A stretch of DNA of 29,361 nucleotides from Candidatus Altarchaeum sp. GTDB taxonomy: Archaea; Altiarchaeota; Altiarchaeia; Altiarchaeales; Altiarchaeaceae. Under the pieces are notes generated by a model. That model saw only the letters and a list, made by a program, of their open reading frames with translations, searched no databases and was not told where the DNA came from. Both the position numbers and the translations under genes were made by a program. How positions within the stretch are numbered: position 1 is the first letter of the stretch; each line of letters opens with the position of its first letter. Positions 9,626 through 18,838 of the stretch are shown in pieces. The stretch lies in assembly GCA_018260615.1 (NCBI GenBank), contig JAGWDQ010000110.1:1-29361 (forward strand), in the 5' to 3' direction.

Positions 9626-10912
9626 TTAAATTAAGTTGAAGGATTTTAAGTATTTCTTTCCTTCTGCGGCAGTAAAAAATGAACCTGCAATAACAATACA
9701 ATCCTTATTCATGTTTGTTTTATTTATCTCCATCGCCATCTCAATTGCATCCTTCACATTGCCAGTAGAAAATACATTTTTAAAATTTAAAAATTTATTC
9801 ATATCCTCGGGTTCTGCAGCCAGTTCGTAATTTGGCTTTGTAAGAATTGTCACACTTATCATATCCGAAAATTTTGAAACAACCTTAAAAATTTCTTCCA
9901 TATTTTTGTATTTTAAAATTCCGAGTATCAAAATTATCCGTTTAAAATTTCCCCCGTTTTTGATTTTTAACATTGTATTAAACAACGCTTCAAAACTTGC
10001 CTTGTTGTGGGCGACATCAATAATAATTAATAGCTGCCTGCTGAATACTTCAAGCCGACCTTCAATTTTTACATTCTTCAACCCGTTCTTAATTGCCTTA
10101 TCTGAAATTTCTATCCCTCTGTTTTTTAATTTTTCTATCGATTCTATTGTGCAGACCGCATTTTCAATCTGGTGTTGTCCCAGTAAAGGAATTGCGTATC
10201 GCCTGTTTTTATAAACAAATTCCTGAAATTTCAGATCTTTATATATTCCTTTCGGGAAAAAATTTAGGTGTATTAATTCGGAATTTTTTTGTCTGCATGT
10301 CTCACGATATAAATTTAAAATTTCGGGCTGATAAACACATGTAATTAACGGAACATTGTTTTTTATTATTCCTGCTTTTTCCTTTGCGATTGAAATTTCA
10401 TCATTCCCCAGAAATTCCTGATGGTCAAGTGAAATGTTAGAGATTATAGTGAGTATTGGATTTATCACATTTGTTGCATCGTATCTTCCGCCCATTCCGA
10501 CCTCAATGACAGCAATTTCAATTTTCTTTTTTTCAAAATATAAAAATGCCATTAAAGTAACTGCCTCAAAAAATGTCAGGTCAAATTTTTCTATTGTGTC
10601 TTTACATTCGTTAAAAATTTCGCAGACCTCTTTTTTTAAAATCTTCCTGTTATTTACCTGAATTCGCTCCCTAAAATCAGTTAAGTGCGGGGAAGTATAT
10701 AAACCAACATCGTAATCGCTTTCTTTTAATATTGATGCGAGCATTGTGCTTATACTTCCCTTTCCTTTTGTTCCGGCAATGTGAATTGTTTTAAATTTTT
10801 CCTGCGGATTGCCAGCGGCAGATAATGCGTCTTTTATTCTTTCAATGGTTAAGTCAATTCCTTTTGAACTTCTTAAATTATACAGGTATAAAATAATATC
10901 TTTATATTTCAT
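9626..10912 (-). CDS. folC: Folylpolyglutamate synthase / dihydrofolate synthase
   Basis: IHIAGTKGKGS P-loop, GLYTSPHL, ERIQVN, EVGMGGRYDATN, EKAGIIK, GRLE and DVAHN. Confidence 0.93.
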   Translation of the reverse strand: MKYKDIILYLYNLRSSKGIDLTIERIKDALSAAGNPQEKFKTIHIAGTKGKGSISTMLASILKESDYDVGLYTSPHLTDFRERIQVNNRKILKKEVCEIFNECKDTIEKFDLTFFEAVTLMAFLYFEKKKIEIAVIEVGMGGRYDATNVINPILTIISNISLDHQEFLGNDEISIAKEKAGIIKNNVPLITCVYQPEILNLYRETCRQKNSELIHLNFFPKGIYKDLKFQEFVYKNRRYAIPLLGQHQIENAVCTIESIEKLKNRGIEISDKAIKNGLKNVKIEGRLEVFSRQLLIIIDVAHNKASFEALFNTMLKIKNGGNFKRIILILGILKYKNMEEIFKVVSKFSDMISVTILTKPNYELAAEPEDMNKFLNFKNVFSTGNVKDAIEMAMEINKTNMNKDCIVIAGSFFTAAEGKKYLKSFNLI

Positions 10913-10937
10913 TTATTGGATAAAATTTTACAATTTT

Positions 10938-13900
10938 TTAATCTGCCTCATTCATTCCATCCTTGAAGTATTTGTCAAATGCACATTTCTCAAACTCTCT
11001 GAATTTACCTACATCCCCGGCACACATAGTAGCCATATATTCTTTATGTACCGGCTCACCGTGAATCTTGAAGAATTTTATTTCCAAATTCACATCAGAT
11101 AAATTTAACAATTCATCTATAAGCGGTTCTGTAGCGTAACATCCAGGGCACATTAGATCACTGAATTCGTAAATTAAAATTTTTCCATCTTTTTTGCATT
11201 CCATCTTATTGTTTATGGTTAAGCTCGCTTTACATACTGCTTTTTGTGTTGGAACCCTTGAACATACATCATCAATTGTCTTTTGGTCACATCCTATAAA
11301 TAATGAAGGGGTGTGGTCAAGTCCTAAATTTGTGGCCAATGCATATTCGGCATTTACAAGACCTTCTTTTTCCTTATTTTTGTAGCAGGTGTAGAACTTT
11401 GCTTTATCTTTTTCAGGAATTACTTCTTTCATACAAGCAGGAATAATTGCAGTTATATTCTCAAATTTAGTTAATTCATTATAAATTTCCGGTGAAAATT
11501 CTGCACATTTTCCATTTACACAGGCATTACTTTTGCATTCATTATTATTTTGACATGCCTCATTAACTTCTTTGAGATGTGTTACTCTACAAACACTATT
11601 TTCGCATATTCCGCTTGCACATTCCGTATTATTTGTGCATGTTTCTTTTTCTTTCTTTTTATCCACGCAGTGTTTTGTTTCATCGCAATATTGACTTGTC
11701 GTATCGCAGTCCTTATCGCTATCGCATTGCATTGCTAATTTCCATATTCTTAAAAATCCGTAGTTATTATCCCATACAAGTTTCCAGTTTTTCAGTCGTT
11801 CCGAAGGATTTTTACACCAGTCGGCATCACACAATCCGTACTGCGCATAACTGTCGGCATGCTCTCCCAAATATAACTTTGTGAACATGTGATTTTGAAA
11901 TTCATTCGGAGCATAAACAAATTCTCGCCACATAGGCAATCCGCAGACCGTTCCCGAAGTATCATCTTTCATAACACACATAATTACATCACCAAATGAC
12001 TGGATTCCGAGTAATGAACCATTGTGATTTTTCTTCCATTCATCCAAAGACATTTCTTCAGTAAGTACTGGAACATCTCGCCCATTATATGCACTGTATG
12101 TTTCTTTATCCGTGTATCCTTGAACAATTATTTTTTTAACATATATTTCTGTTTTATCTGGTTTATTTATATCAACACTACGTTTAGCAACATCAAATTC
12201 TATTTTTGCAAGATAATCAAGTCGTTGTGTTTTGTTCGGAGGATAACTGCAGTAACCAAAATACAATTTGCTAACCTCTTCACTACCTCCGGCGCTGCTT
12301 TTTTCAATTGTATCAACCTTTCCACCAAAACCACATACGCCTAATGCATTTTTGTTTGGATTCTCCGGATTTTTAAGCCATTCTTCGTACTCTTTATCCT
12401 CTTGTTTTGATAAATTTCCCTGTGCAATAAACCGCAGCGCATGATTCTTTCCGATTAATGTATAATCAGTAACAATATACTTTACATTTGGATACTCTTT
12501 TACTAATTTCATTGCTTCGTCTTCTGTCTGATATACTGTAAAGAATCTTGCTACTTCCTGAAGCTGCCAGTGAACTGCCTGTAAATTGTCAATCAATACA
12601 GGTCTTTCTGCTATTGGAGTGATCCAGTGTCCATAATCCCACCATGTTAAAACAATATCCTCTTTATCTGTATTTTCATTAAACCACTGCAATCCCGGCA
12701 TCCACCAGTTTATTCCGCTTCCTATATTCCAGTCACCATCAGCACCCTGATGAAGCATTGTTGTTGACGAATGGAATAAAGGTGAAAAGTAGGGAAGTAA
12801 TGTATTAGTGACCAGTTTGCCTGTAGAATCTGTTGATTGGTAGGTTATGTTATAAATATAAGGAAATACAAATAACGGGATTATAAGCACTGCAAATGTT
12901 CCGATAATTCTCACTCCGTTTAAGTTCTTTTTATTAATTCCTGCAATTAATCCCACAGTAGCACCTAACGCAATAATCCCCAGAACGGAATCAACCCCTC
13001 TTTGAGGTACATTATAATATGCCCACAATCCGGAAATTGCCAAAATTAAAATTATTGCGGCACCCATCTTTCCTCCTTCGGGAGAAAATTTAAGGGTAAG
13101 TAAAAATATAGCAATAATATCAAAAAAGACAAAAAGTATAAATATCAACCATGAATTTGTACTTCCAATCCATGATAATGAAGACGAACCCATCATAACT
13201 ATTACCAAATAATGGAGCAACACTGCTACTCCTATTGGAATTATTGTATGCAACGAAGGTTTTCCCTGCCTGCCTGCAATTAAATAAGAAAGCAATGGAA
13301 TCATTGCCAATCCGTATAAAAATAAAATTCCGTAAGTTGTAAAATCACCCTGGCCTATTTGTTCCGCAATTGTCTTAAAAACGACACCTGATGTAGTAAC
13401 TGATAATGCATCTAAAACAGGATCAAGGAACAGGTCATGGAGAGCAAAAATTCCTATTGCACCAATAACAATAATTCCCCCGCTTACGGCTCCCAAAACA
13501 TTTTTCGGAAGTTTGTTTAACGCATTTTCTATAAACAAATTTATCATTTCAAGTTTGCCATATTTCTTATCTTCATCATATTCTTCATTTGCTGTTATTT
13601 TATCTGACTTTATCAGGAACAATCTTAACATTTCAAGGATTAAAGGAACAACAATAACCGCAGATATGATAAGCATCGCGGTTTTTGAAGGTGAAAATAT
13701 CGGAAGCGCGTTATGTGCATGCAAAATCAGTCCGTTGAACAAAGGAAAAATCATCGGAATTACTATGTATGGCACATGCGAAAATGTATTTTCTTTGTTT
13801 AAAAATTTTGCCAGCGCGTACAAAACAGCAAACAAGCCAAGAGCATAAAGTGCATAAGCAGCATATCCGCTCCAGGCAACAGAGAAAAAGAAAAATGTGA

Positions 13901-14903
13901 TTCCTGCAAGTAATGTCCATTTTAATGACTTATTTTTAATCGCATTAAATATTACATACATCGTTGCAGCCATAAGCATTAGTCCCATTTCACTTGCTTC
14001 GTCACTTCCTGCAATTGACCTTGTACTGTAAAGATAATTAAATCCCAGACAAAACGCACCTATTAATCCGACTAATTTGTTATGCGGGGCATAAGCAGAA
14101 AAAATTTCCCTGAGGAATAAATACATAAAAAGTACTGCAAAGCCGGCCATCAGTCCGCCGAACAGCATCGCAGTATCATACTGGTTGATGCCAAGCGGTG
14201 ATAAAATTTTTGCCGTTGATGCCATAAATACTGCATGTAAATTGAAATTCGTTGAAAAATCAAGCCCGCCGGATGTTTTCCACTGACTTTCAGGAGTGCT
14301 CGCATAATAATCGGGGTCAGTTATTTTCGGATATGTTAAATTATCATAATCCATCACATGTTCGGTCGTATAAGTATTATTAACAATTTTATAATGCCAG
14401 TGACTGTCAAATGCATCACCGCTCGTTAAATAAGGATTTGTTGCTGGGACAAGATGAAATAAAAATACGGAAATAACAACAGCAATCACTGCTGCAACTT
14501 CCTTTGATAAAAATTTATGCACAGATAATACATAAAACAGCAGATAAATTCCAATCACAACTCCAAAAACATTAAAATCACCTGCCATCCATCCGACACT
14601 ATTCATCCCATGATAAGAAAATAATGCCTCTGTAAATATCAGAACAGGAACTCCCATAAGATAATAATTCTTAACTTTTCTGAAATACATATACACAAAA
14701 TAAGAGGACAATATGCCAAGTATTATAAATATGGCTGTAAAGACAATCGGAGGAATTTGATTTGCTCCGGAAACGAATGGTTTGATAATTGCCAGTATAA
14801 ATGTCAAGACCGAAATAATAAATAACGGCTCAATAATCCTCCCGCTAACACCCTCTACCCACTTGTCTAAATTTTTTGATGTTGATAAATTTACTCCTTG
14901 CAT
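10938..14903 (-). CDS. aglB: Oligosaccharyltransferase AglB/STT3 with C-terminal Cys-rich repeats and a DsbA/thioredoxin-like domain
   Basis: Multi-TM N-terminal region with DSHWH, RSIAGSDEASE and TIAEQ; WWDYG at 12630-12644 followed by IDN; about 260 extra C-terminal residues including EFSDLMCPGC. Confidence 0.9.
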   Translation of the reverse strand: MQGVNLSTSKNLDKWVEGVSGRIIEPLFIISVLTFILAIIKPFVSGANQIPPIVFTAIFIILGILSSYFVYMYFRKVKNYYLMGVPVLIFTEALFSYHGMNSVGWMAGDFNVFGVVIGIYLLFYVLSVHKFLSKEVAAVIAVVISVFLFHLVPATNPYLTSGDAFDSHWHYKIVNNTYTTEHVMDYDNLTYPKITDPDYYASTPESQWKTSGGLDFSTNFNLHAVFMASTAKILSPLGINQYDTAMLFGGLMAGFAVLFMYLFLREIFSAYAPHNKLVGLIGAFCLGFNYLYSTRSIAGSDEASEMGLMLMAATMYVIFNAIKNKSLKWTLLAGITFFFFSVAWSGYAAYALYALGLFAVLYALAKFLNKENTFSHVPYIVIPMIFPLFNGLILHAHNALPIFSPSKTAMLIISAVIVVPLILEMLRLFLIKSDKITANEEYDEDKKYGKLEMINLFIENALNKLPKNVLGAVSGGIIVIGAIGIFALHDLFLDPVLDALSVTTSGVVFKTIAEQIGQGDFTTYGILFLYGLAMIPLLSYLIAGRQGKPSLHTIIPIGVAVLLHYLVIVMMGSSSLSWIGSTNSWLIFILFVFFDIIAIFLLTLKFSPEGGKMGAAIILILAISGLWAYYNVPQRGVDSVLGIIALGATVGLIAGINKKNLNGVRIIGTFAVLIIPLFVFPYIYNITYQSTDSTGKLVTNTLLPYFSPLFHSSTTMLHQGADGDWNIGSGINWWMPGLQWFNENTDKEDIVLTWWDYGHWITPIAERPVLIDNLQAVHWQLQEVARFFTVYQTEDEAMKLVKEYPNVKYIVTDYTLIGKNHALRFIAQGNLSKQEDKEYEEWLKNPENPNKNALGVCGFGGKVDTIEKSSAGGSEEVSKLYFGYCSYPPNKTQRLDYLAKIEFDVAKRSVDINKPDKTEIYVKKIIVQGYTDKETYSAYNGRDVPVLTEEMSLDEWKKNHNGSLLGIQSFGDVIMCVMKDDTSGTVCGLPMWREFVYAPNEFQNHMFTKLYLGEHADSYAQYGLCDADWCKNPSERLKNWKLVWDNNYGFLRIWKLAMQCDSDKDCDTTSQYCDETKHCVDKKKEKETCTNNTECASGICENSVCRVTHLKEVNEACQNNNECKSNACVNGKCAEFSPEIYNELTKFENITAIIPACMKEVIPEKDKAKFYTCYKNKEKEGLVNAEYALATNLGLDHTPSLFIGCDQKTIDDVCSRVPTQKAVCKASLTINNKMECKKDGKILIYEFSDLMCPGCYATEPLIDELLNLSDVNLEIKFFKIHGEPVHKEYMATMCAGDVGKFREFEKCAFDKYFKDGMNEAD

Positions 14904-14984: not shown

Positions 14985-15019
14985 TGGTTTTTGGTTTTAT
15001 TCTGGTTTTTGGTTTTATT
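14985..15019. repeat. 18-bp-period tandem repeat x2 overlapping the uppS stop codon
   Basis: TGGTTTTTGGTTTTATT at 14985 and 15003. Confidence 0.75.
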
Positions 15020-15680
15020 TTCCAAAATTTCTTTTTGTTTTATTATAATCCTCCAGAATTTTGAGCAAATCGTCCTTTTCTAATTCGGGCCATAGTTTAT
15101 CAACAAAATAAATTTCCGAGTATGCCCCCTGCCACAGCAAAAAATTACTTATGCGATGCGCACCTGTCCTTATAAATATATCAGGATATTCTTTAATGAG
15201 CAATTTATTTCGCACATTTTCTTCATTAACCTCCTCATTGCTGTTCTTAAATTTTTTTATAACTTCCATAATTTCCTGCCTTCCCCCGTAAGCAACCGCT
15301 AAATTTACCTTATGTTTATCGTATTTTGCTGTCGCATCTTCCAGCTCCTTCAATTTCTCAACAAATTTTTTACTTTTTACCGCATCTAAATTTCCGCAGA
15401 TTTTTACACACACCTCATTTTTGTGAATTCTATCGTCGTTTATGGTTTTATCAATTTCCTTTATTAAAATTTTGTTTAAAATTTCCAGTTCCGCTGCACT
15501 TCTGTTCCGGATATTTTCCAGAGATAAAGCATACGCGGTGATACTCTCAACATCCATTTTGCTGCACCATTCAATAAAATCCCTGAATTTATTCATTCCG
15601 ATGGCGTACGCTTCTTCAAAGCCCTTTCCTTTCTTTTTTGCATACCTTCTGTTTCCATCAGGTGTTATAGCAATATGCAT
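15015..15680 (-). CDS. uppS: cis-prenyltransferase (polyprenyl diphosphate synthase, lipid carrier synthesis)
   Basis: HIAITPDGNRRYAK, YALSLEN, AVAYGGRQEI, RISNFLLWQGAYSE and RNFGK. Confidence 0.93.
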   Translation of the reverse strand: MHIAITPDGNRRYAKKKGKGFEEAYAIGMNKFRDFIEWCSKMDVESITAYALSLENIRNRSAAELEILNKILIKEIDKTINDDRIHKNEVCVKICGNLDAVKSKKFVEKLKELEDATAKYDKHKVNLAVAYGGRQEIMEVIKKFKNSNEEVNEENVRNKLLIKEYPDIFIRTGAHRISNFLLWQGAYSEIYFVDKLWPELEKDDLLKILEDYNKTKRNFGK

Positions 15681-17527: not shown

Positions 17528-17669
17528 TTAAAATTTCGGAATAATCTCTTTTAAAAATTTATACTTTTTTATAAGTGGTTTCAAATCATCAAGCAATTTC
17601 TTAAATGTTGAGCAAGTTCCTCTGTTTTGATATGTGCCTTATTAATTCAACACGCTCGTAAATCATTGA
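17528..17669 (-). pseudogene. Decayed duplicate of the last ~47 codons of the HD-domain gene
   Basis: Aligns with 18984-19127; translates as SMIYERVEL...TEELAQHLRNC/DDLKPLIKKYKFLKEIIPKF* with two 1-nt deletions (142 vs 144 bp). Confidence 0.9.
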
Positions 17670-18838
17670 GGTATCCACTTGACTATAAACTTACGATTTG
17701 CTTTTACTTCTCCGAGTTCAAATTTATATTGTGTGTAATTAATAGTATTCTCTTTTGAATATTTTTTTCTATCATTACGCAAAGGTATGGATCCTCCTTC
17801 ATGATACATCTCAATAGATGGTTCCTCCTCAAAATTGTAACCTCGCTCAAAATTTACAACAATTTCAAGATTATCATAGTCGTTTAGTGTCTCCCAGGTA
17901 TATGTGGCGCAATCTACATTTTCCTTGAGAGTTCCATTCTTTAATTGTTCTTTTTTAAATGGAAATACATTATCCGAACTCCATTCCCATCCGTATTTTA
18001 TGGTGGTGCCTTCTGGTATGTTCCCTTCACGACTCTTGAAACAGATGAAAAAATTTATTTTATCATCTGTCGTTTCATCATTTATAACTTCTACTTTGTC
18101 TACGAATATGTTGTCAGGTGACAAAACTCTCGCATAAAATGTTTCATCAAAAAATCTTTTTTTGTCAACAGCATCTGTGTAGTTTAATGATTTCAGTGGT
18201 TTCAGGTTTGTATCTTTAAAAGAGCATTTTTCTAACCAAAATCCTTGTTTTCTACATTTAAACTTATCTGATAATGTCTTAATTGTTACAGTTATTTCTT
18301 CAATTGCATGACCATTGTTATAAATAGTTAATTTTGATATATTATTTATAATTTTATGATATCCTTGAAAGATTGGTTTTTTATAAATGCTTTCTGCATA
18401 TTCTTTTATGCTGTTTCTCAATTTTTTAAGATATCCACCATCTTTATCTTTACCTATTATCTTTGATCTGTCAAATGGTACATAATTGTAATCTCTTGGT
18501 GTCATTCCAAAGTCCATTATATTATTCTCAACAAATATTAAATAGTCCTTATCAAGAGCGACTGCACTACCAATTTCACTGTATATCCACGGAGATGAAA
18601 TACACCCTTTATCAGTTTCGTATTTTTTAGTTAGAATAGCACAAAATATAGAATTTGCACTTATTTTTGGGATAATTTTTTTTATCAGAGAATTCGCTTC
18701 AGGTGATTCAGCATCTTCACATTCAAAATACTTTTTTAATTCATCAACAAACCACTTAATAATTTTTTCATCTTCCTCACTAAAACTATAACTCACAAAT
18801 ATTCCTTTTTTATTATTCTTCTGCAATTCCATAGTCAC
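17663..18838 (-). CDS. TIR-like / nucleoside deoxyribosyltransferase-like N-terminal domain fused to an unrecognised beta-rich C-terminal domain; candidate defence protein
   Basis: GIFVSYS at the N-terminus, IFCAILT, and SPWIYSEIGSAVAL with the Glu at the TIR/NDT catalytic position; 391-aa ORF. Confidence 0.65.
   Translation of the reverse strand: MTMELQKNNKKGIFVSYSFSEEDEKIIKWFVDELKKYFECEDAESPEANSLIKKIIPKISANSIFCAILTKKYETDKGCISSPWIYSEIGSAVALDKDYLIFVENNIMDFGMTPRDYNYVPFDRSKIIGKDKDGGYLKKLRNSIKEYAESIYKKPIFQGYHKIINNISKLTIYNNGHAIEEITVTIKTLSDKFKCRKQGFWLEKCSFKDTNLKPLKSLNYTDAVDKKRFFDETFYARVLSPDNIFVDKVEVINDETTDDKINFFICFKSREGNIPEGTTIKYGWEWSSDNVFPFKKEQLKNGTLKENVDCATYTWETLNDYDNLEIVVNFERGYNFEEEPSIEMYHEGGSIPLRNDRKKYSKENTINYTQYKFELGEVKANRKFIVKWIPQ

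Follow-up and report, generated by a model that had tools for sequence, protein, structure and literature searches.

To our knowledge, the characterized prokaryotic oligosaccharyltransferases (OSTs) are single subunits without folding helpers. Members of the AglB/PglB/STT3 family (A. fulgidus AglB, 3WAJ, 5GMY, and 7E9S; C. lari PglB, 3RCE; human STT3A/B, 6S7O and 6S7T) have in common a multi-pass GT-C membrane part, an outer domain, and the WWDYG, TIxE-type, and DK-type motifs. In eukaryotes, a thioredoxin-fold domain with a CxxC motif is held next to the catalytic subunit of the OST, at its lumenal or outer face (Ost3/Ost6 in yeast, MAGT1/TUSC3 in human), and MAGT1/TUSC3 delay or correct disulfides so that STT3B can reach its sequons (PMC7563561). 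Here we analyze the aglB gene within a 29,361-nucleotide stretch of DNA (the whole of contig JAGWDQ010000110.1, below referred to as the window) from the groundwater archaeon Candidatus Altarchaeum sp. (GCA_018260615.1), in which an OST and a thioredoxin-fold domain are fused in one chain. The encoded protein has the shared features of the AglB/PglB/STT3 family and adds to them N-terminal helices and a 263-amino acid (aa) C-terminal tail made of a stalk and a CxxC domain. Compared with Ost3/Ost6 and MAGT1/TUSC3, this CxxC domain forms part of the catalytic chain itself, contains no membrane helices, belongs to the DsbA family, is circularly permuted, and is exchangeable. The Ost3/Ost6 layout (a separate subunit with an N-terminal thioredoxin domain and its own helices) differs from the one found here, and Pfam returns DsbA families rather than OST3_OST6. 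The distinction from Ost3/Ost6 drawn in the original prediction is therefore upheld, and the likeness would be a functional analogy at most.

The gene comes from a genome bin of 2.2 Mb (GC content 33%, completeness 87%), in which it is the sole AglB found, and the nearest relatives of its product belong to Ca. Altiarchaeum. As predicted, it forms a single continuous open reading frame (ORF) without a stop, and the motifs are located at the residues given by the original prediction (DSHWH at 166, TIAEQ at 511, WWDYG at 754, and C1252-P-G-C1255). Five contigs, derived from assemblies of three sources (ENA, NCBI GCA_002841105.1, and Logan) that may share reads, encode an identical protein. The fusion was also looked for in close relatives, and the same architecture of AglB, cysteine repeats, and CxxC domain is present in independent genomes (G001, P0002, P0008, and L277). 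Misassembly or frameshift is ruled out by the identical protein on five contigs together with the independent genomes, and thus the fusion of the two parts in one chain is real.

By every feature testable in the sequence, including the motifs, the membrane part, and the outer domain, the protein is assigned to AglB. Its profile matches STT3A and the A. fulgidus AglB (3WAJ) with E-values of 1e-56 to 1e-62. The metal-binding acidic residues D166, D300-E301, and E514 and the DK-type motif D813/K819 line up with the equivalent motifs across 16 AglBs, and the columns of WWDYG and of the DK-type motif are invariant in the AglB alignments. Transfer of a lipid-linked glycan to N-x-S/T is the predicted activity expected from membership in the OST family. 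According to hydropathy, the final hydrophobic segment ends at about residue 690, which places the tail on the same side of the membrane as WWDYG, in agreement with the extracytoplasmic, acceptor-facing location proposed originally. Since the Altiarchaeum cell has two membranes (PMC4460559), this side, including the tail, should correspond to the periplasmic face of the inner membrane.

The tail had been described as cysteine-rich repeats followed by a DsbA-like domain with a CPGC motif. Both parts are present and the domain has a thioredoxin fold, but it is circularly permuted and not an ordinary DsbA. The three repeats contain 12 cysteines (residues 1060-1133) and probably form a disulfide-stapled stalk; several further exported proteins encoded in the genome share this four-cysteine repeat, in many cases ahead of a membrane anchor. 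Residues 1135-1321 match Pfam Thioredoxin_4/DSBA above the cut-off (E 1e-7). In an alignment to 4N30, the order of the halves is reversed relative to DsbA, with the late half containing the Thr-Pro loop coming first and the CxxC half second. The predicted structure of the domain (pLDDT 95.9, pTM 0.90) is matched best, out of 48,161 solved chains, by 1UN2 (Z 11.9, 150 residues aligned, root-mean-square deviation 3.7), which is also ranked first by Foldseek. DsbA-family chains occupy the top ranks of both fold searches. In contrast to 1UN2, wild-type DsbAs align with only about half of the domain (Z of 5.3 or less). The reversed halves and the 1UN2 match rule out an unpermuted DsbA, and the model identifies the domain as a natural circularly permuted DsbA-like fold. 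Because the alignment behind this model included segments that bridge adjacent domains of tandem DsbA proteins, the half-order in the sequence serves as independent evidence of the permutation.

The 1UN2 chain is the engineered E. coli cpDsbA-Q100T99, which has the same element order and is opened in the helical insert. In contrast, the Altiarchaeum domain is natural, only 15% identical to it, fused to an enzyme, and equipped with six extra invariant cysteines; it thus parallels in nature a DsbA permutant made in the laboratory. With the DsbA, DsbG, and BdbD-type oxidoreductases it shares the strand-CxxC-helix active site, the helical insert, and the Thr-cis-Pro loop, and it differs from them in the permuted order and in that a DsbB or VKOR partner was not found in 61 Altiarchaeota genomes. 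Eight cysteines (C1252/C1255 and six further ones), the predicted cis-proline P1199, and an active-site phenylalanine are invariant in nine permuted homologues, and the six extra cysteines probably staple the fold. The permuted domain evolves under purifying selection (ratio of nonsynonymous to synonymous substitution rates, dN/dS, of about 0.11-0.27, with dS near saturation), and both active-site cysteines are retained in every complete tail. Tandem DsbA proteins dominate the profile search with the tail domain, which suggests that the permuted domain may have arisen by duplication and trimming of a tandem DsbA. In Altiarchaeota, permuted relatives include stand-alone and FKBP-fused proteins, and others occur in Patescibacteria clusters; the permutation is thus shared beyond this gene. 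One stand-alone relative (L058:803-1513, minus strand, genome G055, from another family) is a membrane-anchored permuted DsbA with a CPEC motif; the main AglB of G055 runs off its contig.

Within the genus, the end of the gene behaves as an exchangeable cassette. In close relatives, an unrelated thioredoxin cassette takes the place of the stretch from about position 11582 to 10915, and the identity of the two flanks remains at 95-98% (blastn). Behind an identical type of repeat, the alleles carry either the permuted DsbA or a plain thioredoxin (CPHC or CGFC), the plain type being found in the type strain assembly CCXY01. For example, along most of the core the protein of the window (P0001) shares 97-99% identity with P0005, and G001 shares 96-100% with P0006, yet the tails differ in both pairs. 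The permuted domains share 51-70% identity, the tails being more divergent than the cores. On the core tree, the tail type changes at least three times, and a single clade of the plain type is rejected (approximately unbiased test, p 1e-74). Every Altiarchaeum allele with a readable C-terminus ends in a thioredoxin-fold tail.

The matches to the locus in public runs are assembled contigs. In a second sample from the same study, the contig with the permuted cassette has a depth of 188 compared with 2200-2500 for the flanking contigs, and this difference, contig depth being a rough guide, suggests that the permuted cassette is a minority allele there. A contig from an RNA library of another aquifer spans the core and the repeats and departs at the breakpoint into the plain-thioredoxin allele, which is no proof of transcription. 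A hot-spring contig (run X3) joins both flanks of window positions 10914-11582 with 726 different letters in place of 667, possibly representing a further cassette allele. Downstream of aglB in GCA_017973855.1, a lipoprotein-like gene of 521 aa (L253:9043-10608, plus strand), preceded by a duplicated folC fragment, encodes a signal, a repeated portion of the outer domain of AglB without WWDYG, cysteine repeats, and a second thioredoxin (CPHC); this gene may be an intermediate of tail exchange.

An FKBP lipoprotein provides a second scaffold with the same swap, its C-terminus being a plain thioredoxin in this genome (G000) and a permuted DsbA in P0010. The G000 gene (G000:C44:9051-10580, also L160:4052-5581) encodes FKBP together with two almost identical thioredoxin modules, and P0010 is its orthologue. 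Altiarchaeal lipoproteins combining FKBP with thioredoxin have been noted before (PMC4975002); they contain the same thioredoxin and permuted DsbA modules but no glycosyltransferase part, and they plausibly constitute a reservoir of tail modules, whatever the direction of transfer. A plain thioredoxin (CQHC) is also located inside a NosD/beta-helix surface protein of this genome (G000:C68:19184-20980, L161:3185-4981) and of G001. Elsewhere in the genome (G000:C121:2-10830, L162), adjoining genes contain cysteine repeats, the first two of them encoding a PQQ beta-propeller and a Ser/Thr kinase in a receptor-kinase-like arrangement.

Across the phylum, AglBs with a CxxC tail were identified in 13 of 61 Altiarchaeota genomes, where they fall into three AglB clades. 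Family f1 (four genomes) combines the cysteine repeats with either the permuted DsbA or the plain thioredoxin. Families f2 and f6 carry a plain thioredoxin on a simple linker without the cysteine stalk, the f6 gene being interrupted at a scaffold gap, with an overlap of 314 bases. Family f3 (seven genomes) ends in a shorter permuted thioredoxin that is homologous to the tail studied here (hhalign 96%) and has 1UN2 as its best fold match (Z 8.0); in five of the seven, an FKBP domain precedes it (E about 1e-22 to 1e-26). In L055 and L237-L240 of this family, the short permuted thioredoxin also forms the end of a second protein, whose gene adjoins a tandem DsbA gene. Altogether, three thioredoxin-fold modules, namely the permuted DsbA, the plain thioredoxin, and the shorter permuted thioredoxin, occupy one position. 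Since different CxxC modules, and FKBP, are found at this position, the case for a genuine single-chain OST with a thioredoxin-fold part is stronger than initially claimed. The tree is compatible both with one gain followed by losses and with three gains of the tail. Outside the phylum, a CxxC tail was detected in none of 50 AglBs of other archaea, the sampling there being poor and the broad homologue search shallow (17 matches), and a feature search of the ESM Atlas for the fusion returned only ordinary STT3 clusters.

The original prediction envisaged an oxidative-folding machine, and this part is not supported by the redox gene content. Neither DsbB nor VKOR above the cut-off was found in any of the 61 Altiarchaeota genomes, which are incomplete and in which a divergent oxidase could be missed. 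CcdA/DsbD-type membrane proteins exceed the cut-off in 23 of the 61. In the genome studied here, one protein (G000:C24:4947-6758, L251:1948-3759) combines a thioredoxin (CAHC) with a CcdA-like membrane domain and additional helices and has both membrane cysteines; it was missed by Pfam DsbD_TM and identified via its G029 orthologue, which passes the cut-off. Since DsbB and VKOR were not found and the genome has a thioredoxin-CcdA protein, isomerase or thiol-holding chemistry would fit better than DsbA-type oxidation. A threonine before the cis-proline is common in isomerases and is present in S. aureus DsbA (PMC2665069). The same residue makes such domains more oxidizing (PMC2665069), which qualifies the isomerase reading.

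Potential clients of such chemistry are likely to be plentiful in the form of cysteine-rich, sequon-dense exported proteins. In six-frame ORFs of this genome, which give approximate values, cysteine accounts for 2.28% of residues in exported-looking ORFs and 1.31% in ORFs without membrane segments, and the respective sequon densities are 2.85 and 0.64 per 100 aa. One exported protein (G000:C94:2437-32496) has 10,015 aa, 519 sequons, and 212 cysteines.

From the directly supported elements, namely the single chain, OST motifs, same-side topology, permuted fold, purifying selection, and module exchange, we infer the catalysis, the substrates, and the coupling as follows. The tail is probably a tethered periplasmic thiol catalyst that acts on the acceptor proteins of AglB, analogous and not homologous to Ost3/Ost6. 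In this mechanism, AglB would glycosylate cysteine-rich, sequon-dense proteins upon their exit from the Sec channel, and the CxxC domain, tethered on its cysteine-rich stalk, would form short-lived mixed disulfides with acceptor cysteines. By holding or reshuffling these cysteines, it could keep the sequons extended until they are glycosylated, after which folding would proceed. The domain would act mainly as an isomerase or holdase, recycled by the thioredoxin-CcdA protein or by small-molecule redox partners. We envisage a loosely tethered module, for which the presence of a CxxC beside the enzyme would outweigh the identity of the module. More tentatively, and as a proposal that could well be wrong, we put forward a broader version, in which the protein would be a single-chain counterpart of STT3B-MAGT1 that evolved in Altiarchaeota. 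Its plug-in foldase, whether permuted DsbA, plain thioredoxin, or FKBP with permuted thioredoxin, would control the glycosylation of cysteine-rich proteins, would be recycled in an anoxic periplasm with neither DsbB nor VKOR, and would form a strain-exchanged cassette tuning the set of glycosylated surface proteins.

Several observations weigh against a thiol catalyst dedicated to the acceptors of AglB. About 40 AglBs of families f4, f5, f7, f8, and f9 have no tail (contig ends truncate a further two), so that glycosylation in general does not require it. FKBP lipoproteins, stand-alone anchored proteins, and a beta-helix surface protein carry the same modules as well, which are thus mobile. 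Cysteine lies near 24% of the sequons in exported ORFs, approximately as expected from its frequency alone, and no special clustering of cysteines around sequons beyond composition was seen in these ORFs. One family has a variable CxxC dipeptide, two of its members having CxxxC. Finally, MAGT1 acts mostly in the oxidized state, whereas no oxidant pathway was found in these genomes.

The main rival reading is that AglB merely anchors a general periplasmic foldase near the translocon, the domain being active but without effect on the choice of sequons. The occurrence of the same modules in stand-alone membrane-anchored proteins and on FKBP lipoproteins, with the same swap between permuted DsbA and thioredoxin on the latter (P0010 and G000 C44), is what this reading would lead one to expect, and the free exchange of modules speaks against a fixed docking surface. 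We nevertheless regard it as rather unlikely, since the genome already has anchored catalysts and yet all readable Altiarchaeum aglB alleles keep the tail, and since tails are present in three separate AglB clades. That the tail is a passenger of frequent domain shuffling among exported proteins, with no role linked to AglB, appears improbable. Cysteine repeats and plain thioredoxins are indeed scattered over unrelated surface proteins, the repeats provide recombination points, and in one relative the 3' end of aglB is partially duplicated in tandem. However, the position holds only folding catalysts (three thioredoxin types and FKBP), and purifying selection and the retention of CxxC, cis-proline, and six further invariant cysteines argue against a passenger.

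The domain could instead serve AglB itself, in forming or repairing its own disulfides or in redox regulation, given that 28 cysteines follow WWDYG here compared with 2-7 in tail-less relatives. The majority of the 28 are located in the tail, the f2 and f6 tails have no cysteine stalk, and substrates other than AglB would better account for a fused FKBP. We consider this idea slightly more improbable than a passenger. The least probable of the alternatives, in our estimate, is a recognition module whose polymorphism is maintained by viruses, symbionts, or shifting surface substrates, redox chemistry being secondary. Two unrelated alleles occur among near-identical strains, apparently within one sample, and the greater divergence of tails than of cores points in the same direction; in contrast, dN/dS is well below 1, the catalytic motif is kept in both alleles, and the domain is expected in the periplasm of a two-membrane cell (PMC4460559). 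The preferred reading is thus still a tethered thiol catalyst acting on acceptor proteins.

We found no paper on a fusion of AglB with thioredoxin or FKBP in the open literature, subscription papers (e.g., Nikolayev et al. 2020 on AglB evolution) lying outside this coverage, and the OST reviews searched do not mention such a fusion. Newly seen here are the redox version of the AglB fusion, the natural DsbA permutant, the strain-level exchange of the cassette, and the absence of a detected oxidase partner. If the proposed role is correct, coupling of glycosylation to disulfides would have arisen again outside eukaryotes, within one chain. Such a protein would be far simpler than an eight-subunit complex for studying the effect of an oxidoreductase on site occupancy, and the natural alleles, with a near-equal enzyme core and different tails, offer ready-made controls. 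A tethered CxxC may also help bacterial glycoprotein engineering. A further question posed by the tail is how an anaerobe in which neither DsbB nor VKOR is detected handles its many presumed surface disulfides.

The coordinates of the gene, its parts, and its neighbors are given in Table 1. As originally noted, uppS is located directly upstream of aglB on the same strand. This adjacency was dropped as an argument for the tail, because uppS adjoins aglB throughout the phylum whether the tail is present or absent, and it therefore says nothing about the tail.

Table 1. Features of the aglB locus within the window (positions in nucleotides; res, residues of the AglB protein)
Feature	Position	Strand	Remarks
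aglB fusion gene (P0001)	10938..14903	-	1321 aa, zero internal stops
AglB membrane part, res 1-698	12810..14903	-	about 16 hydrophobic segments (hydropathy); D166, D300-E301, TIAEQ (E514)
AglB extracytoplasmic domain, res 699-1058	11730..12809	-	WWDYG 12630-12644; DK-type motif D813/K819; Pfam AglB_core-like above cut-off
Three four-cysteine repeats, res 1059-1135	11499..11729	-	weak Pfam Dickkopf_N / DUF7107 matches
Circularly permuted DsbA-like domain (modeled), res 1136-1321	10941..11498	-	T1198-P1199 loop (11307-11315) precedes CPGC (11139-11150)
Exchangeable cassette: third cysteine repeat, CxxC domain, spacer before folC	10915..11582	-	blastn breakpoints 11568-11586 and 10897-10915
uppS / cis-prenyltransferase	15015..15680	-	upstream neighbor of aglB
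folC	9626..10912	-	downstream neighbor; conserved flank of cassette

Farther upstream in the window, positions 17663-18838 (minus strand) encode a protein of 391 aa with an N-terminal TIR_2-like domain (E 4e-5, below the cut-off), which is possibly related to defense.

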